Of a DNA stretch of 64,000 nt, positions 696 through 46,606 are shown piece by piece. This stretch comes from Nitrospinales bacterium. GTDB taxonomy: Bacteria; Nitrospinota; Nitrospinia; Nitrospinales; VA-1. The position numbers and the translations under genes were made by a program. A model generated the notes under the pieces. That model had not been told where the DNA came from and did no database searches. It was given only the letters and a program-made list of their open reading frames with translations. The stretch spans positions 2,400,001 to 2,464,000 of the forward strand of contig OZ253496.1 in NCBI GenBank assembly GCA_965262115.1, written 5' to 3'. Every line of letters starts with the position of its first letter. The first letter of the stretch is position 1.

Positions 696-775
696 GCTCC
701 CTCTTTCTCAAAGCACCCGTGCCGGGCACGAGGGCTAAGGTTAAATATCACGAGGGGCTGGGGTGATTTACATCC
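696..775 (+). repeat. REP-like hairpin repeat, copy 1, interrupted by a 38-bp micro-element (714-751)
   Basis: TGCTCCCTCTTTCTCAAAG-[insert]-AGGGGCTGGGGTGATTTACAT; near-identical flanks at 1181-1260. Confidence 0.8.
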
Positions 776-815
776 AGTAATAACCCGTTGCTCTGAACGG
801 GGAACATTTGTTTTG

Positions 816-1157
816 TCAGGTGATGGAGAAGGACTCCCCGCATCCGCAGGTTGAGGTTGCGTTTGGATTTACAAAAACAAATCCTTTTCCCTGCAAGCCG
901 TCCTGAAAATCCAATTGCATGCCTTTCAAGTAAATCATGCTTTTGGCATCCATGTAGACGTTAAAGCCTTCATGCGGGATCACCGTGTCACCATTCTCCT
1001 GCGGCGTGAACTGGAGGTCGTAAGACAGGCCGGAACATCCGCCTCCTTTAACTCCCAGGCGTAGTCCGATATCGGGATTGCTTTCTGCATTGACAAGCTT
1101 TATGACCTCTTCGCTGGCTTTAGGGGTAATTTTTACAAAATCGATGTCGACTGCCAT
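816..1157 (-). CDS. iscA: Fe-S cluster assembly A-type carrier (IscA/ErpA/HesB family)
   Basis: GGGCSGLSY and TCGCGESF motifs. Confidence 0.93.
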   Translation of the reverse strand: MAVDIDFVKITPKASEEVIKLVNAESNPDIGLRLGVKGGGCSGLSYDLQFTPQENGDTVIPHEGFNVYMDAKSMIYLKGMQLDFQDGLQGKGFVFVNPNATSTCGCGESFSIT

Positions 1158-1180
1158 GAACGCCTCCAGTGGTTATGTTT

Positions 1181-1260
1181 TGCTCCCTCTTTCTCAAAGT
1201 ACCCCTTCGGGGCATGAAAGTTAATGAGGGGATATCACAAGGGCCGGGGTGATTTACATT
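1181..1260 (+). repeat. REP-like hairpin repeat, copy 2, interrupted by a 39-bp micro-element (1200-1238)
   Basis: Direct repeat of 696-775 with an insert at the same position. Confidence 0.8.
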
Positions 1261-1762
1261 CAGAAGAAATTATAACTCTTCCTATTAGATAGCATATGGG
1301 TGCTTAAAGATTCATTAATTATACCCAATTTTAGCGTTTTCCGTCAAATTAAGCGCACTCGGCGTGCGGCCAACGGGTAATAGCCTTCATGGGCGGACAA
1401 AGTGTTGTCTTGGCTTATATTTCGTTGGCAAACACATCAGGTATTTTGATGATTTTTTGATATGGGTGACATTGGGACTTTTATCATTATTAATGCTGTA
1501 TGTTTCGATAATTTGGATTGCAAAAGGATTTACAAAGGAGCAATAATCTGGCTGATTTTGAGGGACTACTAGAACTAAGCCTTACGATACATTGGTGGAA
1601 TATATTTTATTTCTTCTGAATGTAAATCATCAATACTTGAGTTCAAGTTGTAAGTGCAACTTTTAGTAAAGTTTTCTTTTTGAAGAATAGCTCAAATTCA
1701 CCAAATCGTTTCAAAAGCCCACCCATTTCCAGTATGTGTTAGTCGATGGGTATGGGCAATCT

Positions 1763-2173
1763 TTATAGAACCTCCTTCAAGGCGGTTTGAAAAAACTTTG
1801 AACGGTTTAACCCCATGCTTTTTGCTCTCTGGTCCGCGACCTTCAGGAGGTTTTTGGGGATAGTGATATCAACGTGGACGGACTTGTCGGATTCCATCGA
1901 CATCTTCACAGCAAAAACATCGGGTTCAATCAGGGCGACCGATTCACCGGGCTCGGTTTTTTTCATGATCTTTTTGACCGGGCTTGGTCTGGGAATTTTC
2001 TCTCCATCCGTCAGCATTCCATATAAGTGGAGAGACAGGCACTCCTTAGCCATTTTAATGGCGTCTTCATAGTTATCCCCCATACTTACGGCTCCTGGCA
2101 GGTCCGGGAAGGATACTCCATACCCTTTTTTAGCGGGTTCCAGAATGGCGGGAAAGGCTCCGGGATTTTTCAT
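1763..2173 (-). CDS. hicB: HicB-family antitoxin with C-terminal ribbon-helix-helix
   Basis: GYGVSFPDLPGAVSMGDNYEDAIKMAKECL motif; directly downstream of hicA. Confidence 0.9.
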   Translation of the reverse strand: MKNPGAFPAILEPAKKGYGVSFPDLPGAVSMGDNYEDAIKMAKECLSLHLYGMLTDGEKIPRPSPVKKIMKKTEPGESVALIEPDVFAVKMSMESDKSVHVDITIPKNLLKVADQRAKSMGLNRSKFFQTALKEVL

Positions 2174-2174
2174 G

Positions 2175-2375
2175 CTAAAACTCCTTTATTCCTGATTGCT
2201 TCATAATAGATTTAATCATTTTTTTGGAGAACGAGTCTTTTGGGTGCGGTACGGTGACTTTTCCGGGTTTGACAGAATGTTTGAACTGAAGATGGCTCCC
2301 TGCGGAAGTCACTTTATACCAACCGTCTTTTTTAAGGGCTCTGATGATTTGCTTTGAACTCAGGCTCCAGTTCAT
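2175..2375 (-). CDS. hicA: HicA-family toxin (mRNA interferase)
   Basis: LKKDGW...GSHLQFKH..KPGKVTVPHPK signature. Confidence 0.9.
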   Translation of the reverse strand: MNWSLSSKQIIRALKKDGWYKVTSAGSHLQFKHSVKPGKVTVPHPKDSFSKKMIKSIMKQSGIKEF

Positions 2376-2641
2376 ACAGACTAATATACATTGATAAGGC
2401 GGCGAGTCAATAGGAGCTGACCGGAGAGTATGGCGATATGCTACTCTGGAAAATATGCGGTGCGATTATAAACAGTGTCTTTCGAGTAACCGCTTACTTT
2501 ACAGTGGGATATTTCTTACCTGATCTACTGCCCTTATAGTATTATAGAGTGAAAAAAGCTTGAAAGCATAAATCTTTTTGGCCAAAATAGAATCAAATAC
2601 TGCATAGGTCATTTCAACCCCTGATGGAGATAGATATAAGG

Positions 2642-2872
2642 ATGATCAGTATTCCGGATTTGATTGGTTTGGTTAAAACAGCGGTTCCTGACGCAGAAGT
2701 GAATGCTTTGGATAAAACGGGGATGAAAGATCATTTTATCATTCATGTCACCTCAAATGCTTTTGAAGGAGTGGCAATTATGGATCGGCACCGTATGGTT
2801 ATGGAAGCTTTGGATCCGGCTATGAAGGATGGACGGATTCACGCGGCGGAAGTCAAGACCGCAACACCTTGA
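2642..2872 (+). CDS. bolA: BolA/IbaG family protein
   Basis: DHFIIHVTSNAFEG...RHRMV...IHA motif; paired with grxD. Confidence 0.88.
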   Translation: MISIPDLIGLVKTAVPDAEVNALDKTGMKDHFIIHVTSNAFEGVAIMDRHRMVMEALDPAMKDGRIHAAEVKTATP

Positions 2873-2944
2873 ACTGACCACAGTGCTCCCCTTGAGTTTT
2901 TATAAATTTTTGTAAGTGTTGATATTTTTTTAAAGGAGTGTGTA

Positions 2945-3265
2945 ATGTCTGGTATTGAAGATCAAATTAAAGAAGAAATTGCGGCTAATAAAATCCTGAT
3001 TTACGGGAAGGGTACTAAAGCAGCACCGCAATGCGGATTCACAGTAGAGACCATCCAGTTTTTCAATAAATATGGGTACCCCTTTGAAGTCATCAATTGT
3101 CTCGAAGATATGACAAAGCGTGAAGCCTTGAACAAGATGACCAACTGGCCGACACTTCCCAAAGTTTTTATTGATGGCAAGTTTTACGGCGATACGGATA
3201 TTCTCGATGAGATGGAAGCCAAGGGTGAGGTGGAGCCTCTGATTAAAGCCGCATTTGGTGAGTGA
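2945..3265 (+). CDS. grxD: Monothiol glutaredoxin (Grx4/GrxD), CGFT variant
   Basis: KGT..APQCGFT, NWPTLPKVFIDGKFYG. Confidence 0.88.
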   Translation: MSGIEDQIKEEIAANKILIYGKGTKAAPQCGFTVETIQFFNKYGYPFEVINCLEDMTKREALNKMTNWPTLPKVFIDGKFYGDTDILDEMEAKGEVEPLIKAAFGE

Positions 3266-3414
3266 TATCCCATTTAGGGGTGATGGGCTTGCGGGAATTA
3301 TATCCCTCAAGCCCTGTTCTTTTTTGGGAGGCCTTTTTTTGCAAAGGTCTCGCATTTTTTGGTCCTGTTGTATGACAGGACCCTTTGCTAATAATCAATA
3401 AAGAGGTGTTTTCT

Positions 3415-3936
3415 ATGCCTGATGAGTTAGAGGTTGGGGACCGCGCGCCTAATTTTGAATTGCCCGCTTGCTATGGTTATAAAGCAGGCGCGTCAAGTCC
3501 ATCTGCTGAAGAAAAGGTGGTGGTCGGCCTGAAGGATTTTCAGGATAAAAAATGGGTGGTGCTGGCTTTTTACAGGCTGGATAGCAGTCCTGAAGATACC
3601 CGCCTGATGGTAGGGTTCAATGAATGGAACCGAAAATTCAAAACCCGTGAAGTAGAAGTTGTGGGCTGCAGTTGGAATGGTGTTAACGCTCATCAGCAGT
3701 TTATCGAAGTGTTCCAGTTCGGGTTCACCTTATTGGCGGATGAACACAAAAAAACTACGGAACTTTATGGGGTGATCAAAGAAGAAGAAGATCTGGGCCA
3801 GATGGTCAAATACATTGAACGTACTACTTTCGTGATCGATAAAACAGGAATGATCCGGGCGATTTGGCGAAACATTGAAGACCTCCGCGAACACCCAGCC
3901 GCAGTCTGGGATTTCATCCAAAAAGAAAAGCGCTAG
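3415..3936 (+). CDS. Peroxiredoxin (Bcp/PrxQ-like) homolog lacking the peroxidatic Cys
   Basis: VGDRAPNFEL, WVVLAFYRLDSSPEDT, LLADE, ERTTFVIDKTG match the AhpC/TSA fold; PxxxTxxC is not intact. Confidence 0.8.
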   Translation: MPDELEVGDRAPNFELPACYGYKAGASSPSAEEKVVVGLKDFQDKKWVVLAFYRLDSSPEDTRLMVGFNEWNRKFKTREVEVVGCSWNGVNAHQQFIEVFQFGFTLLADEHKKTTELYGVIKEEEDLGQMVKYIERTTFVIDKTGMIRAIWRNIEDLREHPAAVWDFIQKEKR

Positions 3937-4021
3937 CGACCGGCCAAGCGGCCGGAGGCAATCGGGCAAAGGCTTATTGAACCGCCAAAACTCTTTGCTC
4001 GCCAGCAAAAGTCAGTGCTAG
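3933..4021 (+). repeat. CTAG-bounded intergenic repeat between convergent genes
   Basis: About 78% identical by eye over 65 nt to 10991-11055; both CTAGs contain the flanking stop codons. Confidence 0.7.
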
Positions 4022-4743
4022 TTGGCCCCGCGCCTAGCGGTAGTTATGATGGTTTCCCGAATGGATTCCAAAACAGCCTCATTTTCTTTTTTATCGGCGC
4101 TTGGTTCGACGGGAGGGGAAATAATGACCCGGATGGGACCCGGGGTGATGCTGGCACTGCCTTTTTTGATGATATCCCCACTCCCGATAATGGTGATCGG
4201 TACCATAGGGCTTTTGGACCGGCTAGCTATCAGATTGCTGCCCTTCTTAAACGGACCTATTTCTCCATCCTCAGAGCGTGTGCCTTCCGGGAAAATAATT
4301 AATGAACATCCTTCCCTGATTTTTTCCAGTGTCTTGTTAAAAGCTTCATAAGCCTTCTTGCGATCACCCCTGTCTACCTGGATGTAACCCGATGCTGACA
4401 TCGACCAACCCATAAGAGGAATTTTGAACAGGCTAGATTTGGCGACCCATCTTATTTGTACGGGAAGATATCCAGACAACGCGAAAATATCAAAATAGCC
4501 CTGGTGGTTGGAAACGAAAATTTGCGGTCGATCGGTGAGAATATTTTCCTGTCCGCTTATTTCAACCTTAACTCCGTTCAGTTTGCAAAGAAGCCGACAC
4601 CAGAGTCGGGATATCGTGTGGGAGAGGTTGCCGCTTTTGTCAAAAATTCCTGCGACAATCGCCAGAATCCCAAGAATTATGGATAGAAAAGAAATGAGCA
4701 TCCAAAACCTTGCTGTATGATAAATTAAAACGAGTTTGCTCAA
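4018..4743 (-). CDS. plsC: 1-acyl-sn-glycerol-3-phosphate acyltransferase
   Basis: NHQGYFD and IFPEGTRS motifs. Confidence 0.9.
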   Translation of the reverse strand: MSKLVLIYHTARFWMLISFLSIILGILAIVAGIFDKSGNLSHTISRLWCRLLCKLNGVKVEISGQENILTDRPQIFVSNHQGYFDIFALSGYLPVQIRWVAKSSLFKIPLMGWSMSASGYIQVDRGDRKKAYEAFNKTLEKIREGCSLIIFPEGTRSEDGEIGPFKKGSNLIASRSKSPMVPITIIGSGDIIKKGSASITPGPIRVIISPPVEPSADKKENEAVLESIRETIITTARRGAN

Positions 4744-4775
4744 CTTGGATTCCGTCTGAAATCGGCTTGAAAAAA

Positions 4776-5579
4776 ATGGCAGGAAATCGGAAAAGGTTCG
4801 GTATTTGCTTTCAAATCGGGCTGATTTTAATATTGCTGGTTGTGAGTATTCAGAATTCCGCTGCCTGGGGACCTCAGGGCCATCGGGTTATTGGTTTTAT
4901 TGCCGAGAGCCATTTACAACCGGAGGCTAAAGAATTAATCCTCGAAAAGTTTAACATAAACAGCTTGGCAGATGTTGCGACCTGGGCGGACAGGACCCGG
5001 AAAAAGCGAAAAGAAGAAAACCCCTGGCATTACACCAATATTGAAGAAGGGCAGGGGACTTATAAAGCTGAAAGGGATTGCCCAAGCGGAGCCTGTGTTA
5101 CCGAGAAAATTCATGAATTCTCAGGTGTTTTAGGAAACCGTTCAGCTTCTTTACCGCAAAGAAAAGCCGCGCTGAAATATCTGGTACATTTTGTTGGAGA
5201 TGTGCATCAACCCCTTCACCTGGGTAACAAAAAAGATCGGGGCGGGGGCACTCTCCGCTTTCCTTATAAAGGAAAAGTGGCCAGCCTGCATTATTTATGG
5301 GATGGAGGGCTGATAGAGTGGCCTGGATCTCTGTTACAATACGCGTCCCACTTGAATAATAGGGTGTCTGAGGACGAAGTTTTGATGTGGAACCAGTCAT
5401 CGGTTTCTGATTGGGCCAACGAATCCAGAAGCCTGGCTTTGAAAGTCGCCTACAATATTGAAGAGGAAGGCCTGACCAAACCTTATATTGAAAAAGGCCG
5501 GGAGGTTATTAACCTCCGGCTAACGCAGGCAGGTGTTCGGCTTGCGCACTTGTTGAATACAATATTAACGATTTTGTAA
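4776..5579 (+). CDS. S1/P1 family secreted nuclease
   Basis: Signal peptide followed by WGPQGH; WADR; HFVGDVHQPLH; LHYLWD. Confidence 0.9.
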   Translation: MAGNRKRFGICFQIGLILILLVVSIQNSAAWGPQGHRVIGFIAESHLQPEAKELILEKFNINSLADVATWADRTRKKRKEENPWHYTNIEEGQGTYKAERDCPSGACVTEKIHEFSGVLGNRSASLPQRKAALKYLVHFVGDVHQPLHLGNKKDRGGGTLRFPYKGKVASLHYLWDGGLIEWPGSLLQYASHLNNRVSEDEVLMWNQSSVSDWANESRSLALKVAYNIEEEGLTKPYIEKGREVINLRLTQAGVRLAHLLNTILTIL

Positions 5580-5580
5580 T

Positions 5581-5595
5581 GGGGGGGGGGGGGGG
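5581..5595 (+). repeat. G15 homopolymer tract
   Basis: 15 consecutive G ending 3 nt before the TTG start at 5599. Confidence 0.85.
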
Positions 5596-5598
5596 ACC

Positions 5599-6318
5599 TT
5601 GGCAGAAAACAATCCGATTTATTTCAAGCAGCTATTATCGGGGATTGATTTGGGGACCCAGGATCCCTCGGCACGTTCGATGGCCAACTTTTTATACTTG
5701 ATTGGAGACCAGGAAACTCGCGAATGCGTTGTGGTCGACCCCGCATGGGATATCGATGGAATTCTTAAGGTAGTTGAAGAGGATGGCATGAAGCTGACCG
5801 GTGCCCTAGTGACCCATTACCATCCCGACCATGTGGGAGGAGAAATTTTTGGCATTGAAATTACCGGACTGGCGGAGTTGATGGAAAAACATCCCGTACC
5901 GGTTTATGTGAACAAGCATGAGGCGGAAGGGCTGAAGAAGGTTACGGGAATATCGATGTCCGACATGACACAGGTGGATGGGGAGGATAAGCTTAAAGTG
6001 GGTTCAGTGGAGATCAGTTTTTTGCACACCCCGGGGCATACGCCCGGATCCCAGTGTTTCCGGGTCGCCGATAGTCTTGTTGCTGGCGACACGCTTTTTT
6101 TGCAGGGCTGTGGTCGGGTGGATCTGCCCGGAGGAAACAGTGAAGAATTATTCCACACCCTCACCCGTCGTTTGTCTAAAATTGAAGATCATATCATGTT
6201 GTATCCGGGACATAACTATGGAGGCAGTCCTTCTGGCGAGATGGGGGATGTGCGCCAGTCCAACTCCTACCTTCAAATTCAACGCCTGGAAGATTGGTTG
6301 GCGGTCATGGGCAGGTAA
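5599..6318 (+). CDS. MBL-fold metallo-hydrolase (glyoxalase II-like)
   Basis: THYHPDH, HTPGHTPGS, GDTLF...GCGR, YPGHNY. Confidence 0.88.
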   Translation: MAENNPIYFKQLLSGIDLGTQDPSARSMANFLYLIGDQETRECVVVDPAWDIDGILKVVEEDGMKLTGALVTHYHPDHVGGEIFGIEITGLAELMEKHPVPVYVNKHEAEGLKKVTGISMSDMTQVDGEDKLKVGSVEISFLHTPGHTPGSQCFRVADSLVAGDTLFLQGCGRVDLPGGNSEELFHTLTRRLSKIEDHIMLYPGHNYGGSPSGEMGDVRQSNSYLQIQRLEDWLAVMGR

Positions 6319-6425
6319 TACAAAAAGCTCGGGAGCCTGTTTTTTGCCTGTTGCCGGTTCCTATGGGAGCCGGGAAACTGGTTTTTCAGGCCTGTTGTGA
6401 AATGGTATTTTTTACTCTACTAAAG

Positions 6426-6633
6426 GAGACCTTCGCATAAGTCGAAAAACCTGAAAAGCGAGATGCTTCGAGATACCCCTACGGGGCATGAAGTTTAATG
6501 AAGAGGATATCACATACCCCTACGGGGCAAGAATTCAAAGGTCAAATATCACTAGCTCAGCATGACAATACTGGGCCATTTTGTCATTCTGAGGAACAAG
6601 GTGACGAAGAATCTCGGGTTATGCAAGGCTCTC
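6426..6633 (+). mobile_element. MITE, copy 1 (128-bp core plus two micro-element inserts)
   Basis: Terminal inverted repeats GAGACCTTCGCATAA / TTATGCAAGGCTCTC; flanks CTACTAAAG / CCACTAAAG (9-bp TSD, 1 mismatch); core differs from the 42629-42874 copy at 5 positions. Confidence 0.88.
6474..6553 (+). repeat. Two tandem micro-elements (6474-6513, 6515-6552)
   Basis: TACCCCTACGGGGCA...ATATCAC twice, each followed by one extra base. Confidence 0.9.
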
Positions 6634-6708
6634 CCACTAAAGGGGTTGCAACTTCCCTGTAAATAAATTAAATTTAGCCTGCTTAACCTTTATGACCAAG
6701 GAGGTCAG

Positions 6709-7380
6709 ATGAGATCCATCCTGTCAATGTTTTCGAAGTCGCCGTTTAAGCCTTTGGCAAGCCATATGGATAAAGTTCGTGCTTGTGTGGAGCAAATCAA
6801 GCCCTTGTTTGAGGCACTGGAAAACAAGGACTACGATTCGGTGCAAAAAGTTTCTGAATTGATCGTGAAGCTGGAGCATGAGGCGGACATGATCAAGGAC
6901 GATATTCGCACTCATATGCGGCAAAGCATGTTCCTGCCGGTTGATAAAAAAGATTTCATGCATATTCTTTCGGCGCAGGATGATATTGCCGATGCCATAG
7001 AAGATTTGGCCGTTTTACTGCGAATCAAAAACCTGGATACCCCGGTTGAAATCAAGCTCCTTTTAAAGGATTTGGTGAGCCATATTGTCAATACTGCACA
7101 TATGGGTTGTGATCTGATTTCCGAGTTGGAAGCTTTGCTGGAGGCTTCTTTCGGTGGTGCTGAAGCGGAAAAAGTGGAAAAGGCTACCCAGGAACTCGGC
7201 ACTGCCGAATGGGAAGCCGACCGCAAGCAGTTTCTACTGGCGAAAAAGTTGTTTGCATTGGGCAATGATTTAGGTCCGGCAGACTTGTTGTTATGGAATG
7301 AAGTGATCAAAAAGCTTGGTGCTGTTGCAGACAAGACGGAACAAATCGGTAAAACTCTTAGGATATTCCTTTCTCAATAA
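6709..7380 (+). CDS. DUF47 / PhoU-like phosphate transport regulator (TIGR00153-like)
   Basis: SPFKPL..HM, LEHEADMIK, QDDIADAIED; upstream of a PiT gene. Confidence 0.85.
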   Translation: MRSILSMFSKSPFKPLASHMDKVRACVEQIKPLFEALENKDYDSVQKVSELIVKLEHEADMIKDDIRTHMRQSMFLPVDKKDFMHILSAQDDIADAIEDLAVLLRIKNLDTPVEIKLLLKDLVSHIVNTAHMGCDLISELEALLEASFGGAEAEKVEKATQELGTAEWEADRKQFLLAKKLFALGNDLGPADLLLWNEVIKKLGAVADKTEQIGKTLRIFLSQ

Positions 7381-7426
7381 TTTAATTTCCCTTTAACTTG
7401 TTTTCAATCTCGGCAAGGAGCCTGGT

Positions 7427-8677
7427 TTGGATTTAGACACCTTCCTGCTTTCATTCGCGGTGATCGCCTGTATCTATATGGCCTGTAATATTGGGGCCAA
7501 CGATGTTGCCAACGCGATGGGTACCAGCGTAGGCTCCAAAGCGTTGACCTTTAAACAGGCGATCATGATTGCTGCCGTCGCTGAATTTATCGGAGCTTTT
7601 TTTGTTGGAGGCCATGTTTCCGATACCATTCGCAAGGGGATGCTCGATCCAACCATGTTTGAGGCGGTTCCTTATCATTTAGTTTATGGAATGATTTCTG
7701 CTTTGCTTGCGGCGGCGCTCTGGTTGCATATTGCCAGTTATCTTGGGTGGCCGGTTTCTACAACCCATTCCATTGTGGGAGGCGTTGTGGGATTTGGCGT
7801 CATCGCCGGAGGTATGGATGTCATAAACTGGGGGAAAGTCGGCCAGGTGGTTTTGAGCTGGGTGGTGTCACCGCTTATGGGTGGGTTGGTTGCTTTTATG
7901 GTGTTTAAGTTTATCAATAGAACCGTTTTCAGCAAGCGAACTCCACTGGTCTATGCCAAAGACCTGCTTCCTTATATGGTGTTTTTTGTATTTGTGATCC
8001 TTTCCAACGCCATGTTTTATAAGGGACTGAAAAATCTTCACCTGGATCTTTCCTTTGGTCAGGCTCTGATTATTTCTCTTATCGTGGGGACCCTGGCTTT
8101 TACCGTTACAAAATTTTTGGCGCAAAAAATTCCTTACAACGCTTCCTGGGATCTGCAGAAACAATTCCATGAAACAGAAAAAGTATTTAAATACCTGCAG
8201 ATTTTAACCGCGTTTTATGTGGCTTTTGCTCATGGCTCCAACGATGTAGCTAATGCCGTCGGACCCTTGGCGGCTGTGGTGGCGATTCTCAAAGATGGAC
8301 AGGTGCATATGAAGGTTGTCATGCCGACCTGGATATTGGCGATGGGCGGAGGATTCATCGTTTTTGGGTTATTGATTTGGGGTGCCAAGGTTATGGCCAC
8401 CATTGGAGAAAAAATTACGGAGCTCACTCCCTCGAGGGGATTTGCCGCGACGTTTGGCGCTGCAACAGTGGTATTGATCTGTTCCAAAATGGGACTGCCT
8501 ATTTCAACCACGCATACCTTGGTGGGATCAGTGATTGGAGTGGGGCTGGCCAGGGGCTTGCCAACTCTGAACTTGGATATTATTAAAATGATCGCGATTT
8601 CCTGGATCTCGACCATTCCGTTTACGTCCATAATCTCGATGCTGTGTTACAAAATATTCTTGGTCTTTTTGCCCTAG
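7427..8677 (+). CDS. pit: Inorganic phosphate transporter, PiT family
   Basis: GANDVANAMGTSVGS, PVSTTH, HGSNDVANAVGP. Confidence 0.93.
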   Translation: MDLDTFLLSFAVIACIYMACNIGANDVANAMGTSVGSKALTFKQAIMIAAVAEFIGAFFVGGHVSDTIRKGMLDPTMFEAVPYHLVYGMISALLAAALWLHIASYLGWPVSTTHSIVGGVVGFGVIAGGMDVINWGKVGQVVLSWVVSPLMGGLVAFMVFKFINRTVFSKRTPLVYAKDLLPYMVFFVFVILSNAMFYKGLKNLHLDLSFGQALIISLIVGTLAFTVTKFLAQKIPYNASWDLQKQFHETEKVFKYLQILTAFYVAFAHGSNDVANAVGPLAAVVAILKDGQVHMKVVMPTWILAMGGGFIVFGLLIWGAKVMATIGEKITELTPSRGFAATFGAATVVLICSKMGLPISTTHTLVGSVIGVGLARGLPTLNLDIIKMIAISWISTIPFTSIISMLCYKIFLVFLP

Positions 8678-8708
8678 CGCGATTTAGTTACCCAAAGGAG
8701 ATAAAAAC

Positions 8709-8745
8709 AAAACCCCCCTGGCCTCTCGGCCAGGGGGGTTTTTTT
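8709..8745. terminator. Bidirectional rho-independent terminator
   Basis: AAAACCCCCCTGGCC-TCTC-GGCCAGGGGGGTTTTTTT between convergent genes. Confidence 0.88.
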
Positions 8746-8767
8746 ATAGGATATGAATAATCCCGAG

Positions 8768-8992
8768 TCAGTTGTAATTTTGTTTTTGCAGGTATTCTGG
8801 CAGAGCCCACTCCAGCTTATCTAAATCTGTATTATAGTGAGCTAAAGCCCCGCAGAAGGAGCAATACTCGATCCCAACTTCGTAGTCCAGGGTGACAGCG
8901 TTGGCCCTGTGCTCACAAAACTTCTTTTTTACTGCCGGGTATCCGCCGTCATTATCTTCAAACCATCCTTTAGAAATTGTTAAGTCTTCCAT
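8768..8992 (-). CDS. Small hypothetical protein, possible Zn-binding (CEH...CSFC)
   Basis: ATG preceded by AGGAG; followed by a terminator. Confidence 0.6.
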   Translation of the reverse strand: MEDLTISKGWFEDNDGGYPAVKKKFCEHRANAVTLDYEVGIEYCSFCGALAHYNTDLDKLEWALPEYLQKQNYN

Positions 8993-9219
8993 TACATCTC
9001 CTTGTTCATGCTAGTTCAAAGATCACTGTCACTCTTAACTTTGATAGTGTCCCCTATGTTAAGACACAATTCAAGCTTTAATTAATCTCTTGTAAAATTT
9101 TATGGACTCGTTTATTGATGCTTTTTGGTTGATAGGGGATGGTGGAGTATGGTTTTTGCGGGGAGTGTTCGAAGGGCCGGTTTGTTAAACGGTTTGAAGG
9201 GAAATCTGGCTGACTTCTT

Positions 9220-10171: not shown

Positions 10172-10188
10172 TTCATGGAGATTTTTTG

Positions 10189-11075: not shown

Positions 11076-11076
11076 G

Positions 11077-37823: not shown

Positions 37824-40800
37824 ATGGCGGATCCTGAAAAGTTCCGGTTTTCCATTGACCGGGGTGGAACGTTTACGGATATTTACGCCGAAACTCCTAA
37901 AGGCCCGAGAGTACTCAAACTCCTTTCAGAAAATCCGGACCATTATTCCGATGCGCCGCTTGAAGGCATTCAAAGAATCCTGCGTGAAGTGAAGGGAACC
38001 GGAGAGATCGACCGCGGTTGCATTGAGTGGGTTCGTATGGGGACCACTATTGCCACCAATGCGCTTCTGGAAAGGAAGGGCGCCCGTACCGCCCTCATCA
38101 TCACAAAGGGATTTGGCGATTTACTGCGCATCGGAAAACAAAACCGGTCGCATATTTTTGATCTGAAAATCACTAAGACCCAGCCGCTTTATGAAACGGT
38201 GGTGGAAATTGATGAGCGTGTCCACCCGGTTCAACAGCCTGCGAACTCTCAACAATCCGGGGTGGAAATATTGCGATCCCCGAATCGAGAAACTGTACGC
38301 CGACAACTTCAGGGCTTGCGCCAGCAGGGCATTGAAAGCCTTGCCATTGCCCTCATGCATGCTTGTATTTCCCCAGATCACGAACAATGGGTTGCTGAAG
38401 AAGCTGTAAAAATCGGGTTTCAAAATATTTCCCTTTCCAGCGCGGTCATGCCCAGGTCCAGGCTGGTGGACCGGGGCCACACCACCTGCCTCGATGCTTC
38501 CCTGAACCCGCATATCCAAAATTATTTGAAAAAATTTCGTGCCGGACTGGGTGAATGCGACCTGTTCCTTCTGCAATCAGATGGGGGACTTGTGGATGCC
38601 GACTCTTTTACCGGGAGCCGCGCCATTCTTTCCGGTCCGGCGGGCGGAGTGGTTGGCTATGCCCGGACAACGAAAAATGTGCCGGTGATCGGGTTTGATA
38701 TGGGCGGCACCTCCACCGATGTGTCCCGGTTTGACGGCAACTATGAATGGCAGTTTGAAAGCGAGGCGCAAGGCATTCCCAACCTTGTCCCTCAATTAAA
38801 CATCCATACCGTGGCGGCGGGAGGTGGCTCCAGATTGCTGTTTGAAAACGGCATGTTTCAGGTCGGCCCGTCGTCTTCGGGGTCTTGGCCCGGTCCCGCC
38901 TGTTATAGAAATGGAGGTCCGCTCTCTCTGACCGATGCCAACCTGGTTTTAGGAAGGCTCGTGCCAGAACATTTTCCCAGTGTGTTTGGAAAAAATGAAG
39001 ACCAGCCTTTATCGATCCCTGCGTCCAGAAAAGTTTTTGAGGAATTAATGGAGCGCATTCATTTCTTAACTGGCAAGAAACGATCAATGGAAGAAGCCGC
39101 CTATGGCTTTATAGAAGTTGCCAACGAAAACATGGCCCGGGCCATTCATGAAATCACTGTCTCACGGGGACACGATGTCCGCGATCATGTCCTATCTTGC
39201 TTTGGAGGAGCCGGAGGCCAGCATGCCTGCGCCATTGCCCGGACTCTCGGCATCTCCCGGATTTTCATCAGCCGTTTTGCCGGGGTACTCTCGGCTTATG
39301 GAATGGGACTGGCCGATGTCACCGTTGATAAAGAGGAACCGGTAATCCACGAAACCCAGGCCGGGTTGGAGCAAAAGCTCCAGGCTCTGGCAGATAAAGC
39401 GGTCGCCGAGCTCAAGCAGAAAGGGAGTTTTTCCATCAACGTCCAACGCTATTTGAACATGCGTTATGAAGGTTCTGATACGACCTTGATGGTGAGGGAG
39501 TCGAACGAGGAAAACTTTGCCGAATCGTTCAGCAAAATGCACCAGCAGGAGTTTGGTTTTAATCCATCGAATCGCAAAATCCGGGTGGAGGCGATCCGGG
39601 TCCGGGTGGAGGGGGAATCTCCGCCACCTGTCCAAACGCCACTTGCCAGAAAACCGGGCCGGCTGAATCCCATCATGCAAAAGGACTGCTACTTCGCCGA
39701 TGGCTGGCAGGAGACCCCCGTCCACGCTTTGGATTCGATCGGTGCGGGTCAATCGCTGGAAGGTCCGGCGATTCTCATTCAAGACACTTCAACCATTCTG
39801 ATAGAGCCTTCCTGTAAAGCTACCGTTACCAATTATGGCGATGTCGAAATAGAAGTGCAATTTCAGTCGGCACGTACGGTTGGGACGGAACTCGATGCGG
39901 TGCAATTGTCGCTGTTTGGGTCGCGGTTCATGTCCATTGCCGAGCAAATGGGCCGTGTCCTGCAGCGCACCGCTGTTTCCACAAACATTAAAGAACGATT
40001 GGATTTCTCCTGCGCCATCTTCGGTCCGGAGGGAGACCTTGTGGCCAACGCCCCGCACCAGCCGGTTCATCTTGGTTCGATGGGTGAAGCGGTTCGACAT
40101 CAGATCAGGTTAAACGGTCCTCCGATTACCGAGGGCGAAGTCTGGGTCACCAACCATCCTGCGACAGGAGGAAGCCACCTGCCGGATATCACGGTCATCA
40201 CTCCGGTTGTGAAAGAGGGAAAGCTGATCTTTTTTGTCGCCAGCCGTGGCCACCACGCCGATATCGGTGGCAGTACTCCCGGCTCCATGCCGCCATTTTC
40301 GAGGTCGCTGGATGAGGAGGGTGCCAGCATTAAAAGCTTCAAGCTGGTGGCGAACGGAGAGTTCCAGGAAAAAGGAATCACCGAGATATTGACCAGGGCG
40401 GGAACCCGGGCTCTGGCCGATAACCTGTCGGATCTGAAAGCACAGGTGTCCGCCAACCGACAAGGCATCACCCTTTTGAACGAATTGGTGCAAACACATT
40501 CACTAAAAGTAGTGCAGGCTTATATGGAGCACCTGCGCGACAACGCCGGGCAATCGGTGCGCGCTCTTTTAAAAAAGCTCGCCGGAAAAAACGAAAAACA
40601 CGTTCGCCTGCAGGCGGAAGATTTTATGGATGAAGGAAGCCGCATTGCTTTAACCATTAACATTGACACCGTTGTCGGGTCGGCGTGCTTTGATTTTACC
40701 GGTACTTCAAAAGAACTGCCGAATAATTTAAACACCCCGCGCGCGGTGACGCTGTCCGCCATTCTCTATTGCCTGCGTTGCCTGATCGACAGCGACATTC

Positions 40801-41432
40801 CTTTAAACCAGGGTTGTCTCGAACCCATTGAAGTGTTGATTCCATCGGATTCTCTGTTGGCGCCTTCCGACAAAGCGGCGGTGGCGGCGGGTAATGTATT
40901 AACATCCCAACGTATTACTGATGTCATTTTTAAAGCCTTCAAGGCTTGCGCCGCTTCACAAGGGTGCATGAATAACCTCACCTTTGGCAACGACCAGTTC
41001 GCCTACTACGAAACCATAGCAGGCGGCGCGGGTGCGGGACCGGGCTGGCACGGGCAGTCTGCCGTGCACACGCATATGACCAATACCCGCATCACCGATC
41101 CGGAAGTGCTGGAACAACGTTACCCAGTTCTCCTGCGCGAGTTTTCCATCCGCAAAGGCTCGGGAGGACGAGGAAAGTTCAACGGCGGTGATGGAGTGAT
41201 CCGCGAAATCGAGTTTCTCGTTCCACTGAAAGTGGCTGTGCTCTCAGAGCGCAGGGTCTACGCTCCCTATGGACTGGACGGTGGAGAACCTGGAGCAAAG
41301 GGCAAAAACCTGCTGATCAAAAAGGATGGTTCCATCCACAATGTAGGGGGCAAATGCCAACTCGATGTCCAACCCGGTGACCGATTGCGCATCCTCACCC
41401 CTGGCGGCGGTGCTTGGCGCACGGCCGGCTAG
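37824..41432 (+). CDS. ATP-dependent 5-oxoprolinase / fused hydantoinase A+B
   Basis: [56 protein letters not shown]. Confidence 0.92.
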
Positions 41433-41436
41433 CTCT

Positions 41437-42153
41437 TTACTTTTTGTTCTTCTGTTTCCAAAGGATGAGCCAGTGTTGCAGGAGTTTGATCGGTTGTGTG
41501 CCGCGAAATTTTCGGCGTTTGATTTTCGGGGTCTGGTCGTGTTGTAATTTTGCAATGACTGTGGCGCCGACCGCTTCTTCCAGCACCACACCGCGTTGAG
41601 CGTGTTCGAGTTTTTTTGATTCGCAGACGCCGCGAAACGCCACCACCATGCGGCAGTCCAGAGGTCGGTCTTCATACACTTCGCAGGCACCTTCTTCACT
41701 GAGAAACGGGCAGGGTTGATTGATGACCAGTCTATGCCAGTCCACCTGATCGATATTTTTCCCGGATTTAAGAACTTCGTCCACTTTGTTGATGGTTCGC
41801 TGCGAACGTTCGAGCACGGCGTTGAGGTCAACCCCGTTTTCCTCGGCGTTTTTCAGGATGCCGTCCCATTCCAACTGGGTGCAGGAAACTCCGGTATGAC
41901 AACAGTGGGAACATCCGCGATGACATTGCAGGGGTGGCACGCCTTCGTTGAAAACTTTTTTCAGGTGTTGCCAGAACACCCGAAGCGGCGATATTTTTTC
42001 GTCGTGGGCTTTCCCTTCAGAAAACTCAACCAGGTAATCGTAAGCTTCCTGGATCTGATGTTCGGAAAACTTATGCTTTAAGAAACCGCTCAGTTCATCG
42101 GTATTGGTCATACCGTAGATGAACATTCCATTTTTATCAGTTTGGAGAGACAC
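41437..42153 (-). CDS. YkgJ-family cysteine-cluster protein
   Basis: CHRGCSHCC, CPFL...C.VYEDRPLDCR. Confidence 0.82.
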   Translation of the reverse strand: MSLQTDKNGMFIYGMTNTDELSGFLKHKFSEHQIQEAYDYLVEFSEGKAHDEKISPLRVFWQHLKKVFNEGVPPLQCHRGCSHCCHTGVSCTQLEWDGILKNAEENGVDLNAVLERSQRTINKVDEVLKSGKNIDQVDWHRLVINQPCPFLSEEGACEVYEDRPLDCRMVVAFRGVCESKKLEHAQRGVVLEEAVGATVIAKLQHDQTPKIKRRKFRGTQPIKLLQHWLILWKQKNKK

Positions 42154-42155
42154 AG

Positions 42156-42551
42156 CTAAAGAGGGGGTTTATTTTTTGCTACAAACTTCATCTGCAGTTC
42201 ATAGATGAGTTGTTCCAGCAGTTTGCCTTCTTCTTCGTTAAGGTTGCCCTGGGTTTTCTCTTTCAGCATGATCAGCATGTCAATAGTTTGCTGCACGGCG
42301 GGCAGGTTGGTTTCGGTTTTCCCGGTTTCAGGGTCAGCGATGTCGCCGAGGTGATAAAAGGCCGATGAAGTCAGTGACATGATAAAAGTGGAAAAATCGA
42401 TCTTGAAGGGTTGCTGAGCTTGCCCCTGCGAAGGCTGGCCTTGCTGGGCCTCTGTCTTGGAATCCTGATCTAGCGCTTCGTCTTCGGAAAGTTGTGAAGA
42501 ACGGCTGTCTTTGAATACGAATCCTTCTCCTTCAATTTCTTCATCACTCAT
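42156..42551 (-). CDS. DUF1844 family protein
   Basis: IDFSTFIMSL...HLG...TIDML.ML.EKT.GNL. Confidence 0.85.
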   Translation of the reverse strand: MSDEEIEGEGFVFKDSRSSQLSEDEALDQDSKTEAQQGQPSQGQAQQPFKIDFSTFIMSLTSSAFYHLGDIADPETGKTETNLPAVQQTIDMLIMLKEKTQGNLNEEEGKLLEQLIYELQMKFVAKNKPPL

Positions 42552-42628
42552 GGCACACCTTCAAATTTGAGATTAGCTTCCAATAACCGGTAATTTTATT
42601 AGCTGTCTTCTTCTTCGCCCATCAGCAG

Positions 42629-42874
42629 GAGAGCTTTGCATAACCCGAGATTACCCCATCTACCCGTTCCGGGCATGAATTTAGCGGAGGGGATATCACA
42701 GGCTCATGAAGGTTAAGGAAGAATATCACGTCTTCGTCGCCTTGTTCCTCAGAATGACAAAATGGCCCAGTATTGTCATGCTGAGCTAGTGATATTTAAC
42801 CATTGCTTTCTTGCCCCGGAGGGGTATGTCGAAGCATCTCGCTTTTCTGGTTTTTCGACTTATGCAAAGGTCTC
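42629..42874 (-). mobile_element. MITE, copy 2 (128-bp core plus three micro-elements, two of them nested)
   Basis: TIRs GAGAGCTTTGCATAA / TTATGCAAAGGTCTC; perfect 9-bp TSD CATCAGCAG at 42620-42628 and 42875-42883. Confidence 0.92.
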
Positions 42875-43075
42875 CATCAGCAGGGGAACCGGGAAACCCA
42901 ATACGATCATGATCAATCCCAGCATGAGGGCGAGATAGCCTTTTCCCTCTATAAACTCCATATAGGTTTTTCCTGCCAGCGGCCATTGCAGGACGACCCC
43001 CACCACAACAAATACTGCACCCAGCACGAAAAGAAGTTTTTTCATCCAATTGGCATTTTGCTCATGGGTGTTCAA
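42860..43075 (-). CDS. Small two-TM membrane protein whose C-terminus is altered by the MITE
   Basis: Hydrophobic ORF ending LLM-ETFA inside the TIR; the apparent original tail GEEEDS-stop lies at 42598-42619. Confidence 0.75.
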   Translation of the reverse strand: MNTHEQNANWMKKLLFVLGAVFVVVGVVLQWPLAGKTYMEFIEGKGYLALMLGLIMIVLGFPVPLLMETFA

Positions 43076-43207
43076 TTTTCACCGGAGTGTGGGATTCTTC
43101 TTGTTGATTAACGGGCGGAGCATAACCCTTTCGGATGGTAGCAAAAGGCCCATTTTATGTCAAAATATTAGTCGCCTGTTGTTGTACCGTTCTGCTAAGA
43201 TTGACTC

Positions 43208-44065
43208 ATGAAACCTTATGTGTTGTTATTTATAGGTTTGCTGTTGGTCGGGTGTTCTCCCAGCCGCATGGCGCTTGAGGCCACATTGCCCCTTGTAGAG
43301 AGCCAGATTCTGGCCATGCAGGAGGAAAGGGACCCGGAACTTGCCGAACAGGCCATCCCGGCTAACTTGAAAATCCTCGAAGGACTCCTCAAACAGGACC
43401 CCGATAATACCTGGATACTGGAAAACCTCGCTGAAGGTTTTTGCGGTTACGCCTTCAGCTTTTTGGAAGATACAGAACCGGCACGCGCCTCTTCCTTATA
43501 TGAAAGGGGTAAGGATTATGCCCTGCGCGCGACTATTCTGAGGACAGGAAGGGAAAAATGGCAAGGCCTTTCTTTGGATGAGTGGTCCCGCGCGCTTAAT
43601 GAAGTGGATGTTTCACATCAGTCGGCTTTGTTCTGGATGGGACAATGCTGGGGAAGCTGGTTGATGCAGAATTTGGACTCGGTCGAGGCTTTTGCCGACA
43701 TTCCCCGTTTGGAAAACCTGATGGTGAAAGTCCATGATTTGGACCCCGCTTTTCATCACGCCGGACCACATTTGTTTCTCGGTGCTTTTTATGGTGGGCG
43801 GAGTAAAATGCTCGGTGGCAATCCAGAGAAATCCCGTCACCATTTTGAAAAGGCGCTGGAGTTAACCAACGACAAATATTTACTGGTGCGTTTGTTTTTT
43901 GCCAAAACCTATGCGGTGCAGAATCAGGATCGGAAATTGTTTGAATCGCAATTGCAGGCTGTTTTGCAGGCTCCCGTCGATCTTTTTCCCGAGCAGCGTC
44001 TCGCCAATCAAGTGGCCCGCCAAAAGGCCACTAAACTCTTAGGGCAAATTGATGAACTATTTTAA
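43208..44065 (+). CDS. TRAP transporter TatT-component family lipoprotein
   Basis: Lipobox LLVGC, DPELAEQAIPA.LK..EGLL, GGNPEKSR.HFEKA; upstream of a DctP gene. Confidence 0.8.
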   Translation: MKPYVLLFIGLLLVGCSPSRMALEATLPLVESQILAMQEERDPELAEQAIPANLKILEGLLKQDPDNTWILENLAEGFCGYAFSFLEDTEPARASSLYERGKDYALRATILRTGREKWQGLSLDEWSRALNEVDVSHQSALFWMGQCWGSWLMQNLDSVEAFADIPRLENLMVKVHDLDPAFHHAGPHLFLGAFYGGRSKMLGGNPEKSRHHFEKALELTNDKYLLVRLFFAKTYAVQNQDRKLFESQLQAVLQAPVDLFPEQRLANQVARQKATKLLGQIDELF

Positions 44066-45275
44066 GAGGGTCTTTATATATTCGGTGACTTTCTCTAAGG
44101 CAACTCGCAGGCCCTTATTTTATAAGGGCTGCTTACCACAGGGGTCAATAGCAAGGGCGAATAGAGTCGAGATAACCCACTGGTCGCCAGCAGAGTTATT
44201 GCCCGTTGCCTCCCCTGCAAGGGGCTCATGGCCAGAAGCAATTTTTAGAGGTGCCCTTAACTCCACCACCTGCGCCCTGATTGTGCTGTTGTTGACCGTT
44301 GCCGGGGCGAGCCCGGCCGAAGCCGATAAAAAACATATCATCAAGTTTGCCACGCTGGCTCCCGAAGGCTCTTCGTGGATGAAGTCCATGCGCAGGCTTT
44401 CTGACAAAATCAAAAAAGCCACCGACGGCAATGTGGCGTTTCGGTTCTATCCCGGCGGTGTGTCTGGCGATGAAAAGGACGTGATTCGTAAAATGAGGAT
44501 AGGTCAGTTGCACGGTGCTGGCTTTACCGGAGTAGGGCTTGGAGAGATTTTGCCGGAGGTGAGGGTTCTCGATCTTCCTTTCCTGTTCGATAACGATGAA
44601 GAAATCCAGTACGTATACAGCAAAATGAATGCCTACTTTAAAGGTCGGTATGAAGAGAAGGGCTATGTGTTGTTGGGTTGGGTCCCGGTAGGGTGGGTGC
44701 ATTTTTTTTCCCAGAAACCCATTCGTTCGGTGGATGATCTGCGTCAATCCAAACCCTGGATGTGGGAGGGCGATCCGCTGGTGGAACAGGCTTATAGAGG
44801 ACTGGGCGTCCAACCGATTCCCCTTTCCATCACGGATGTCATGCTCTCTTTGCAAACGGGCATGGTGAATACAGTTTATTCGTCAACGCAAGGGGCTTTG
44901 GCTTTGCAATGGTTCACCAAAGTGAAGTATGTTACGCGATTGAAGATGGGCTACGCGACCGGCGGAGTTTTGATCTCTAAAAAGAAATTCGATAAGCTAC
45001 CCAGGCCTTATCAGGAAGCGGTGAAAAAAATCGGTGCCGAGTGCCTGCAGGAACTGGTCGAACTCATCCAGAAGGACAACCTGAAAGCACACAAGGTTCT
45101 AGAGAAGAACGATGTGAAATGGGTGGCGCTTCCCGATGAAAAGGAAATGGGCCGGTTTCAGGAAGCAGGGGTTGCGGCACGAAAAAACCTGGCGGGAAAA
45201 TATTTCCCCTCCAAACTCCTCGATGAGGTTCTCGGCCACCTCAAAGATTTCCGGGCAACGCCCGGTGGTAAATAG
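44052..45275 (+). CDS. dctP: TRAP substrate-binding protein DctP/TatP with a 65-aa in-frame insertion at its N-terminus
   Basis: IKFATLAPEGSSW, FYPGGVSGDE, MRIGQLHG, LDLPFLF, LQTGMV. Confidence 0.88.
   Translation: MNYFKRVFIYSVTFSKATRRPLFYKGCLPQGSIARANRVEITHWSPAELLPVASPARGSWPEAIFRGALNSTTCALIVLLLTVAGASPAEADKKHIIKFATLAPEGSSWMKSMRRLSDKIKKATDGNVAFRFYPGGVSGDEKDVIRKMRIGQLHGAGFTGVGLGEILPEVRVLDLPFLFDNDEEIQYVYSKMNAYFKGRYEEKGYVLLGWVPVGWVHFFSQKPIRSVDDLRQSKPWMWEGDPLVEQAYRGLGVQPIPLSITDVMLSLQTGMVNTVYSSTQGALALQWFTKVKYVTRLKMGYATGGVLISKKKFDKLPRPYQEAVKKIGAECLQELVELIQKDNLKAHKVLEKNDVKWVALPDEKEMGRFQEAGVAARKNLAGKYFPSKLLDEVLGHLKDFRATPGGK
44066..44256. mobile_element. Putative 191-bp MITE flanked by TTAA duplications
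   Basis: TTAA at 44062-44065 and 44257-44260; weak TIR (10/17); internal hairpin; removal restores a normal signal peptide. Confidence 0.65.
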
Positions 45276-45393
45276 CCATCACGTTCTCTTGCGAATGGTG
45301 GTTATCTGGGTTTAAGAGGAGCTTGGTTGAACCGAGACAGCTTTTAGCTAGCCAGTGAAACATTGCTAGTTACCCGCCGAAGTACTTGGCTAG
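45272..45393 (+). repeat. Divergent CTAG-associated repeat
   Basis: GGTTGAACCGAGACAGCTTTT...GCCAGTGAAACATTGCT resembles 17315-17333 and the 16392-16491 copy; ends in the CTAG that holds the PPIase stop codon. Confidence 0.5.
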
Positions 45394-46415
45394 CGGAAGA
45401 AGGTTTCGATTTTTGCCTGTTTTCTCAGGTCTTCGATATAGACTTCCACCAGTTTTTTGGCTTCTTCCATGAACAGATATTTTTGGATGGTTTTTTCCAT
45501 TTCATCGAAAGGTGCCTGTTCAGAGGGGTATTTTTCAATGAGCTTGATGACGTGGAACCCGAACTGGGTTTCTACTTTTCCACTGATTTCACCAGGATTT
45601 AATTTTGAGACGGCTTCGTCAAAAGACGGATCAAAAATCCCTTTATAAATAACGTCCAGATCTCCCCCGCTTTCCCGGCTGGCTTCGTCGTCCGATTTTT
45701 TCTTTGCCAGTTCCTCAAAGTCCGCGCCTTCTTTAAGCTCTTTATGAATTTCGTCTATCCTTGCTTCCGCCTTTCGGGTCAGTTCTTGCTTTTTATTTTG
45801 CAGTTCCGCGACAGGGGTGGACTTCAATAGTTCTGGAGGGAAGATCGCAGCAAGAATGTGGTGAGCGCGATAAGATTCGGGGCGGTGGAATTTTTGCTTG
45901 TTGTCTTCATAGTATTTTTTAACGTCCGCGTCTGCAATGGTGATCTTGCCTTTGATTTGCTCGTTCAATAACTTCCGGGCATTGATATCCACGGTCATGG
46001 AATGTTTGAGATCCTCCAGAATGATGTTTCTTGCGCCCAGGGCTTTTTCAAATTCTTCATCGCTGGCATAAGGTTCGCGAAGGGCTGCCATCTCTTTTTC
46101 GATCAGGTCGGAGTCCACTTCCAGATTCTTTTTTTTGCCCTGTTGGTGGACCAGTTCCCGCACCACTTCTTTTTCTATCAGGTCTTTCACGATACTGGTT
46201 TTTTCGCGGGGGGTCAGCGGCCGTTTGACGTTTTTCAAAATTTGATTCAACCGGAACTCAATATATTTTGATTGGATTTCCACTGCATTGACCTTTGCCA
46301 CTATTTTGGGAATATTCAGCCTTTGTGGAGAAGATTGTGCGAACGCTTTTTCTGCCATCGGAAAAATAAAAGTGAATAGGGATAAGACAACTAAAAGGTA
46401 GAATCTGTTTTTCAT
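45390..46415 (-). CDS. Parvulin-type peptidyl-prolyl isomerase (SurA/PrsA-like)
   Basis: Signal peptide, RAHHIL, FEELAKKKSDD, GGDL, VETQFGFHVIK. Confidence 0.9.
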   Translation of the reverse strand: MKNRFYLLVVLSLFTFIFPMAEKAFAQSSPQRLNIPKIVAKVNAVEIQSKYIEFRLNQILKNVKRPLTPREKTSIVKDLIEKEVVRELVHQQGKKKNLEVDSDLIEKEMAALREPYASDEEFEKALGARNIILEDLKHSMTVDINARKLLNEQIKGKITIADADVKKYYEDNKQKFHRPESYRAHHILAAIFPPELLKSTPVAELQNKKQELTRKAEARIDEIHKELKEGADFEELAKKKSDDEASRESGGDLDVIYKGIFDPSFDEAVSKLNPGEISGKVETQFGFHVIKLIEKYPSEQAPFDEMEKTIQKYLFMEEAKKLVEVYIEDLRKQAKIETFFR

Positions 46416-46449
46416 GGTTTCGTCAAAGGGTAAAAGGTGTAATTGGAAC

Positions 46450-46606
46450 AGGGCAATAGCTGGTTGAGTTGCTAAAATTACTGGCTTGCCAGAGAAAGTG
46501 AGTGCTCAGTTTACCCCTACGGGGCATGAAATTAATGATGGAGATATCACAGCCTCCGCGTGTGAAATTCTTACTTAATTTTTATACCCCGTAGGGGTAG
46601 TAGTGG
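46450..46606. repeat. CTAG-family repeat carrying two convergent micro-elements (46512-46550 +, 46562-46599 -)
   Basis: Removing both inserts gives AGTTGCCTCCGCGGTAGTG, matching the family end AGT(T/C)GCC(G/T)CCACGGCTAGTG. Confidence 0.8.

Follow-up and report, generated by a model that had tools for sequence, protein, structure and literature searches.

The window, a 64,000-nucleotide (nt) stretch of the single 2.68-Mb contig (C1) of a Nitrospinales genome (G000), carries nine copies of a 39-41-nt micro-unit, a mobile element whose two ends, TACCC and ATCAC-Y, are not inverted repeats of each other (Table 1). Y denotes the single extra base at the 3′ end and X the base at position 16. All nine copies reported in an earlier sequence-only reading are present where it placed them, and iterative excision recovers each one together with Y. 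X and Y are Watson-Crick partners in eight of the nine, the exception being the outer copy at 42652.

Removal of a unit with its extra base restores the host, as that reading proposed, and both copies of the host MITE (miniature inverted-repeat transposable element) collapse to one length; by the boundaries adopted here this is 130 nt between GG...CC, in place of the 128 bp first given. This MITE (6425-6634 and 42628-42875) has terminal inverted repeats (TIRs), overlaps resembling target-site duplications (TSDs) and two GTCA-type palindromes, and often contains units. MITE 1 is missing from the orthologous site in the relatives G013 and G019 and in run X5, and three other runs lack MITE 2, the overlap there being ambiguous over 11 bases. 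Host MITEs are gained and lost as wholes with TSD-like overlaps, in contrast to the micro-units: MITE 2 has a TSD-like repeat, whereas the units within it have none.

Table 1. Micro-units and hosts in the window, followed by two unit-associated insertion sequences elsewhere on C1. Window coordinates count the extra 3′ base inside each unit; a slash within a host sequence marks the insertion point.
Feature	Coordinates	Strand	Length	X/Y	Remarks
Host stem repeat	699..770	.			CCCTCTTT...AAAG/AGGGG, host of the 714 unit; style similar to repeats flanking DUF559 genes
Micro-unit	714..752	+	39 nt	C/G	First base C variant
Host stem repeat	1185..1256	.			Same kind as the 714 host
Micro-unit	1200..1239	+	40 nt	T/A
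Host MITE 1	6425..6634	.	130 nt once units removed		Terminal inverted repeats
Micro-unit	6474..6514	+	41 nt	T/A	Head-to-tail with the 6515 unit
Micro-unit	6515..6553	+	39 nt	A/T	In loop of GTCA-type palindrome within MITE
Host MITE 2	42628..42875	.	130 nt once units removed
Outer micro-unit	42652..42730	+	39 nt minus inner unit	T/G	Mismatch; 3′ arm altered to GGCT
Inner micro-unit	42661..42700	+	40 nt	T/A	Lies within the outer unit, where its loop meets an arm
Micro-unit	42788..42826	-	39 nt	A/T	At CGACA/AGCTC, same MITE as the 42652 unit
Micro-unit	46512..46551	+	40 nt	T/A	Host context unmatched elsewhere in genome; shared with G013
Micro-unit	46561..46599	-	39 nt	T/A	Slightly decayed; shared with G013
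Unit-bearing IS3 (example)	C1 1391696-1392998
IS110 (example)	C1 1744395-1745613				About 25 other copies (L211, L219-L238)

Insertion, spread and target sites

The micro-element family is real and mobile. A 19-kb contig of a related strain (run X5) skips exactly window positions 1200-1239, a gap of 40 nt that includes the extra base and leaves zero ambiguous bases, and the site orthologous to the 714 copy lacks the unit in G013, G006 and G020, G013 having there a MITE with a 9-bp duplication instead. The sequence-only reading had looked to such empty orthologous sites as a check on insertion, and its claim that no target duplication is added is borne out by flank duplications of at least 3 bases in just 3 of 224 micro-unit events. 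Empty sites and copy counts agree with its picture of a minimal non-autonomous mobile unit with precise ends. In silico, deleting the 41-nt unit from the IS3 of G000 restores a 98-amino-acid (aa) OrfA plus a -1 OrfB.

The wider scan which that reading recommended finds the family recurring through G000 and its relatives, far above shuffled controls. A strict scan of G000 returns 206 complete units, against 0, 1 and 1 in three 12-mer block shuffles; after nested excision, 239 units are parsed at 186 sites, and a looser scan of the remaining sequence adds 77 candidate 3′ halves, mostly decayed copies. Of 22 congeners, 20 contain the unit pattern, as do 26 of 36 family members, with up to 336 matches per genome; it occurs in 0 of the 24 genomes searched from three other families, while a backwards-pattern control has 0 matches in all 61 genomes. 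Among the matches listed, the named ones are nearly all titled Nitrospina, Nitrospinaceae, Nitrospinales or Nitrospinota; three are titled as other taxa, of which two fall within coding sequence and resemble chance matches, while the third lies amid Nitrospina-type repeats, and spread beyond Nitrospinota is conceivable. Within the window, Rfam gives 0 matches at the gathering score, and no description of the family was found in the literature searched, whose coverage mostly leaves out subscription papers.

Viral contigs yield 11 matches, three of which, on two contigs (L074, L080, L081), look like true units and represent a possible route of spread. Tandem arrangements also occur: at C1 814839-815070 five near-identical head-to-tail units are arrayed and nested in another unit, and G010 and G031 likewise have tandems with a spacer of nearly the same type. 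Near the contig start (C1 3260-28241) lie several tandem arrays of kilobase scale, their periods ranging from about 16 to 73 nt.

Such numbers might be reached passively, if the unit rarely moved by itself and a few old insertions were multiplied through transposition of host MITEs and insertion sequences (IS), gene conversion or template switching. Composite MITEs carry units, as do all 17 IS3 left junctions in G000, where the unit lies in the OrfA/OrfB frameshift region and 10 copies have an IS110 inside. No unit-free IS3 was found in G000 and no match in five relatives, and the IS3 apparently multiplied after unit insertion, or else recombination spread it. Chimeric units, which have mismatched left and right hosts and T-G mismatches, and the two window copies common to G013 fit this account too. 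Set against it, however, are exact presence and absence within an otherwise shared host, identical units at unrelated junctions, 18 spacers at one junction, and 70 junction clusters in one set (45-70 by threshold) together with 19 new ones in an independent set; nor does passive copying explain the coupling of X and Y described below. Passive multiplication is accordingly rated as quite improbable.

One-base footprints number 0 against 25, 4 and 10 empty sites and 1 against 89; with the shortest pattern they number 7 against 122, which may be chance. At C1 1145130, 1427517, 1439019 and 1854846, the left and right flanks of a unit come from different host repeats, suggesting deletions or rearrangements through recombination between units.

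Regarding targets, the sequence-only reading held that units occur only inside other repeats and at sites sharing no sequence, and each statement stands in part. Enrichment in repeats is clear, with 167 of 186 sites matching elsewhere in G000 against 48-54 of 186 random intergenic sites, but the strict rule fails at 19 unmatched sites, among them the two at 46.5 kb in the window. The junction classes comprise GTCA-type palindromes (which we take to be those named CGTC repeats), CCCTCTTT/AAAGAGGG stems, the CCACGCC-AGTGG family, the unit itself and IS3, one insertion lying in the IS3 coding region. A fixed target word is indeed absent, but there is a weak forward preference, WWN/NSYNC, derived post hoc: of 19 new site clusters, 11 have C at +5, where 4.2 would be expected, and four or five motif matches are found in 8 of the 19, compared with 14.5% for shifted cuts. 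The W at -3 failed out of sample (7 of 19), and a rule placing a G.A hairpin in the target, on the same strand as the unit, is true in some hosts and fails overall (19 vs 18). Both strands are about equally represented in both replichores of G000, with no replichore or lagging-strand bias, and orientation shows no bias to transcription (41 vs 37).

Nuclease genes share these flanking repeats, small GIY-YIG genes being flanked by GTCA-type palindromes and DUF559 genes by stems styled like the CCCTCTTT/AAAGAGGG type. Specifically, each of seven DUF559 nuclease genes (C1 377385, 660936, 735444, 1034378, 1582297, 1589978 and 2140509) is flanked by C-rich/G-rich stem repeats in a layout resembling a repetitive extragenic palindromic (REP) cassette, and the small GIY-YIG genes at C1 2573218 and 2378957 are flanked by GTCATT-type palindromes.

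Pairing of the unit ends and the proposed circle

The extra base is coupled to a base inside the unit. Y complements X in 184 of the 206 complete units of G000, and the two are Watson-Crick partners in 175 of 192 units from other genomes and in 126 of 146 metagenome-locus copies fetched afterwards. Over the 528 unit-plus-context records drawn from all data, 471 have a Watson-Crick X:Y pair (TA 253, CG 171, AT 41, GC 6). The X:Y coupling is the strongest covariation in the unit after a trivial stem pair. When 77 metagenome 39-mers are aligned, the 16:39 pair shows 27 double changes, and its covariation score is reached by 0 of 500 shuffles and falls near 0 for slid partners, a control that ignores relatedness. 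In tandems of mixed X, Y pairs with the X of its own unit in 14 of 14 distinct pairs, several of them variants of one arrangement, and with that of the next unit in 0 of 14. Copying of Y from the host flank was rejected, since it equals the left flank base in 32 of 224 cases, where 45.8 are expected. Non-templated addition, which the earlier reading had considered, is not supported, because the extra base complements position 16 in the genome, in other genomes, in the metagenome and in the alignment.

The coupling extends to closely similar copies. Two Watson-Crick X:Y states are found on each of seven identical spacers and both stem states on six, 113 of 143 near-identical pairs that differ at X differ at Y too, and head and spacer appear to reshuffle. 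Because the coupling survives identical and near-identical spacers, re-copying of Y from X is easier to envisage than repeated double mutation, and Y may, on a tentative view, be re-copied by a one-base fill-in in each round. This end-to-internal base pair is new here, and it replaces the non-templated base with a specific, testable closed intermediate.

The head itself forms a hairpin, for which a compensatory change had been proposed; the change holds, the 6:10 pair (not required by the scan) being C-G in 393, G-C in 134 and C-C in 1 of the 528 records. The loop reads TNC in 511 and A.C occupies 2:14 in 523, the other strand reading GNA and G.T, and mini-hairpins of DNA with a GNA triloop and a G.T wobble are a stable motif. 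When tail and head are joined, the hairpin lengthens to C-G, Y-X, T-A, A.C and then four G-C pairs around TNC, and circular DNA folding modestly favours the GNA strand, on which P(X:Y) exceeds 0.5 for 75% of 139 units, vs 60%. Because the GNA-triloop hairpin thereby continues across the junction, a self-closed circle of single-stranded DNA (ssDNA), 39-41 nt long, is the likely mobile form; a likely single-stranded form accords with the earlier reading.

Spread by way of an RNA copy that is reverse transcribed and gains a terminal base would also suit the lack of a TSD and the position between genes, and in some copies a UNCG-like loop could form on the forward strand. The added base, however, is non-random, the perfectly covarying 6:10 pair enforces the triloop and breaks UNCG in 134 copies, orientation to transcription is unbiased, and the only reverse transcriptase (RT) match in G000 consists of broken pieces. 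This route is consequently held to be very unlikely.

On balance, we lean towards a non-autonomous unit that moves as a self-closed ssDNA circle, its ends joined in one hairpin stem, and that inserts without a TSD, mostly into palindromic repeats. The active strand would be the reverse of the one first described, X-GTGATAT-(variable pyrimidine-rich spacer)-TTC-X′-TG-CCCC-GNA-GGGG-TA. In the folded form the terminal A would pair with T, and the 5′ X and G would pair with X′ and C, both ends meeting at a nick in a continuous 8-bp stem that bears the GNA triloop and the G.T wobble. The nick would be located six bases 3′ of the loop, where one cleavage or strand exchange, by an enzyme acting in trans, would release or integrate the circle.

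Candidate enzymes and the IS110 passenger

Searches for the mobilising enzyme were targeted at particular families, without a scan of the whole proteome against family libraries. The hairpin and TCAC end had earlier suggested the chemistry of IS200/IS605 or of REP-associated tyrosine transposases (RAYTs), and the unit could be a minimal substrate of an HUH (Y1) transposase that is transient or diverged past detection, with X as a guide base selecting the cleavage site. As in the terminal-only 52-bp palindrome-associated transposable elements (PATEs) described in PMC3119063, the unit combines the lack of TIRs and TSD with one subterminal irregular hairpin, a long leader and a short tail; guide changes retarget cleavage in a TnpA-REP (PMC8266576); on the GNA strand, position -5 of the target shows a weak G, resembling the end of the unit; and a RAYT is present in the family member G031. 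No Y1_Tnp or RAYT was detected, however, in G000 (best tblastn E 0.57 using four relative Y1 proteins) or in the relatives with 336 and 81 matches (G013, G007), and none of eight Y1 loci inspected has units or a unit head nearby. The fixed 4-6 nt target and lagging-strand bias are absent, and the pairing fits a simple stem extension rather than cross pairing of a 5′ tetranucleotide guide. Moreover, TCAC lies on the strand where the hairpin would fold less well, with the cut one base beyond it, and an HUH-motif scan of 90-260-aa open reading frames (ORFs) in G000 returns none. The chemistry suggested earlier is therefore unlikely, a diverged or lost HUH enzyme being still conceivable. The RAYT-like Y1 gene of G031 (L024) is flanked by GTAG REPs unrelated to the micro-unit.

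Five G000 genes have units on both sides, none mobility-like by eye, and no mobility ORF recurs among the genome and metagenome loci. An intact integron integrase (IntI) was not found in G000, whose tyrosine recombinases comprise two proteins of the Xer type, a truncated protein that falls below the IntI cut-off, and a fragment. The truncated XerA-like protein was rejected as mover, being present in unit-free genomes and not found in G013 or G007, and DUF559 was rejected as common in unit-free families and not found in G007. The XerA/IntI-like recombinase at C1 2164564-2165397 (L239) ends before the usual catalytic tyrosine region; it has 81-98% identical full-length matches in relatives, with matches in 31 of 61 genomes, and is possibly a conserved catalytically dead protein. 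Of the candidates tested, only a small GIY-YIG nuclease, whose gene the main host repeat flanks, is present in all seven unit-richest genomes.

A long element with the same two ends enclosing an enzyme gene, as the sequence-only reading envisaged, was not encountered apart from units interrupted by an IS110. This IS110, with a 316-aa transposase, is inserted in the micro-unit loop: 24 of the 26 left ends in G000 follow CCCCT, and 25 of the 26 right ends run into T-N-CGGGGC. Its left non-coding region is predicted to adopt a two-internal-loop fold in which guide-like words match the unit arms and its own junction, and the element would thus carry a bridge RNA matching the CT core site in the micro-unit loop. 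In one copy a second left end is inserted in the element's own non-coding region, near 2144612-2144781. IS621, a bridge-RNA IS110 (PMC11208160), has a CT core and left-end non-coding target and donor guides, and its target is a palindromic repeat; the G000 passenger resembles it in core and left-end non-coding guides and differs in its target, the loop of the micro-unit.

That the recombinase inside so many units also mobilises them is suggested by the 26 ends, nearly all in unit loops, and by the small modules that IS110 systems can mobilise (PMC12288879). The IS110 joins, however, at a shared CT core in the loop, away from the ends of the unit, and the guides predicted for it correspond to that loop and to the termini of the IS110 itself. 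Only broken relatives occur in G013 and G019, where they also adjoin units, and no Transposase_20 (IS110) match was found in G007, which has 81 units; it follows that the IS110 exploits the micro-unit and does not move it. Mobilisation by IS110 is hence hardly credible and largely refuted: the element is a parasite of the micro-unit, which is abundant enough for an IS110 to have a guide matching it.

Several observations count against the self-closed circle. The energies predicted for circular folding lie close to zero (mean -0.33 kcal/mol), so the closing 2 bp would need a protein; several pairs are fixed by the search patterns, which makes their invariance uninformative; and no circle was observed in the assembled contigs. 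X and Y are mismatched in 57 of the 528 records, most commonly as T-G (31, against 9 C-A), which is a wobble on the forward strand and none on the proposed strand; several mismatched G000 copies are chimeric or converted units. Copies are not independent, many riding amplified MITEs and IS3, so that copy number overstates insertion events, and a single host site accounts for most of the A/T class. Units show neither replichore nor transcription bias. The mobilising gene was not found in the targeted searches of the genome, relatives and metagenome loci, and the GIY-YIG gene is missing from two 22-match genomes and present in unit-free ones, a distribution that makes it a weak lead only; GIY-YIG proteins are hydrolytic nucleases and, to our knowledge, are not known as strand-transfer enzymes.

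A distinct chemistry is possible though doubtful, in which ssDNA dumbbell circles of 39-41 nt, each closed across its own hairpin and with the terminal base re-templated in each cycle, would be integrated almost independently of sequence into hairpin repeats by an enzyme that is neither Y1, DDE nor IntI. If this were true, orphan micro-elements in cyanobacteria and in other phyla would be explained by the same route. Should circle and enzyme be confirmed, the units would be among the smallest transposition substrates and would offer scarless, nearly target-free DNA insertion.

Comparison with known systems

The means by which very small repeats spread when they have neither terminal repeats nor a transposase have long been debated, and here the micro-unit family offers a testable intermediate with a defined junction, a defined strand and one swappable base pair. 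The SDR1-8 repeats of Nostoc, attributed to Elhai et al. 2008, are said to be structured repeats of very small size, inserted into other repeats and not known to have a mobiliser, reportedly measuring 21-27 nt and sharing a secondary structure. These resemble the micro-unit in being small, structured and inserted into other repeats; compared by description only, the micro-unit differs in its length of 39-41 nt, its occurrence in Nitrospinaceae and its split stem closed by two ends. SDR5 is 21 nt with unknown function (PMC13756078), and the Nostoc SDRs are cited in PMC3116915.

Among the elements of Haloquadratum, PATEs derive from IS605 ends and have a 4-6 bp target, and a 52-bp terminal-only PATE, gene-free and with one palindrome and no TSD, may be mobile (PMC3119063). 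The micro-unit agrees in lacking TIRs and TSD and in its near-terminal palindrome, but it has only a weak degenerate preference in place of a fixed 4-6 nt target word, no lagging-strand orientation bias, and no TnpA-Y1 or related IS605 in G000, G013 or G007. The SMR-A elements measure about 110 bp, possess TIRs and enter the palindromes of other elements by a route that is unknown (PMC3119063); the micro-unit likewise inserts into palindromes of other elements, but is 39-41 nt and has no TIR.

REPs and bacterial interspersed mosaic elements (BIMEs), acted upon by TnpA-REP (RAYT), involve an ssDNA hairpin with a required irregularity and proposed circular excision products (PMC3333891, PMC8266576). 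Similarly, the micro-unit hairpin is irregular and the unit inserts near existing repeats; unlike a REP, it lacks GTAG at the hairpin foot and cleavage between C and T, has fixed ends, occurs singly as well as within other repeats, and was not found flanking a RAYT gene. From MITEs it is set apart by having neither TIR nor TSD. In attC cassettes one strand folds, the crossover lies in the stem, the cassette's own ends are complementary and the intermediate is circular (PMC2727003). Complementary ends and a stem in the predicted circle, traced by covariation, are features of the micro-unit too, which differs in having no GTT/AAC R boxes, a length below the 57-142 nt of an attC site, no gene, no intact IntI found and targets that are not att sites.

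Because searches for Y1/RAYT, an intact RT and an integron integrase found none of these, and a fixed target is lacking, the micro-unit fails membership of the PATE, REP, MITE and attC classes. By analogy, it would appear to work most like a gene-less attC cassette or a terminal-only PATE.

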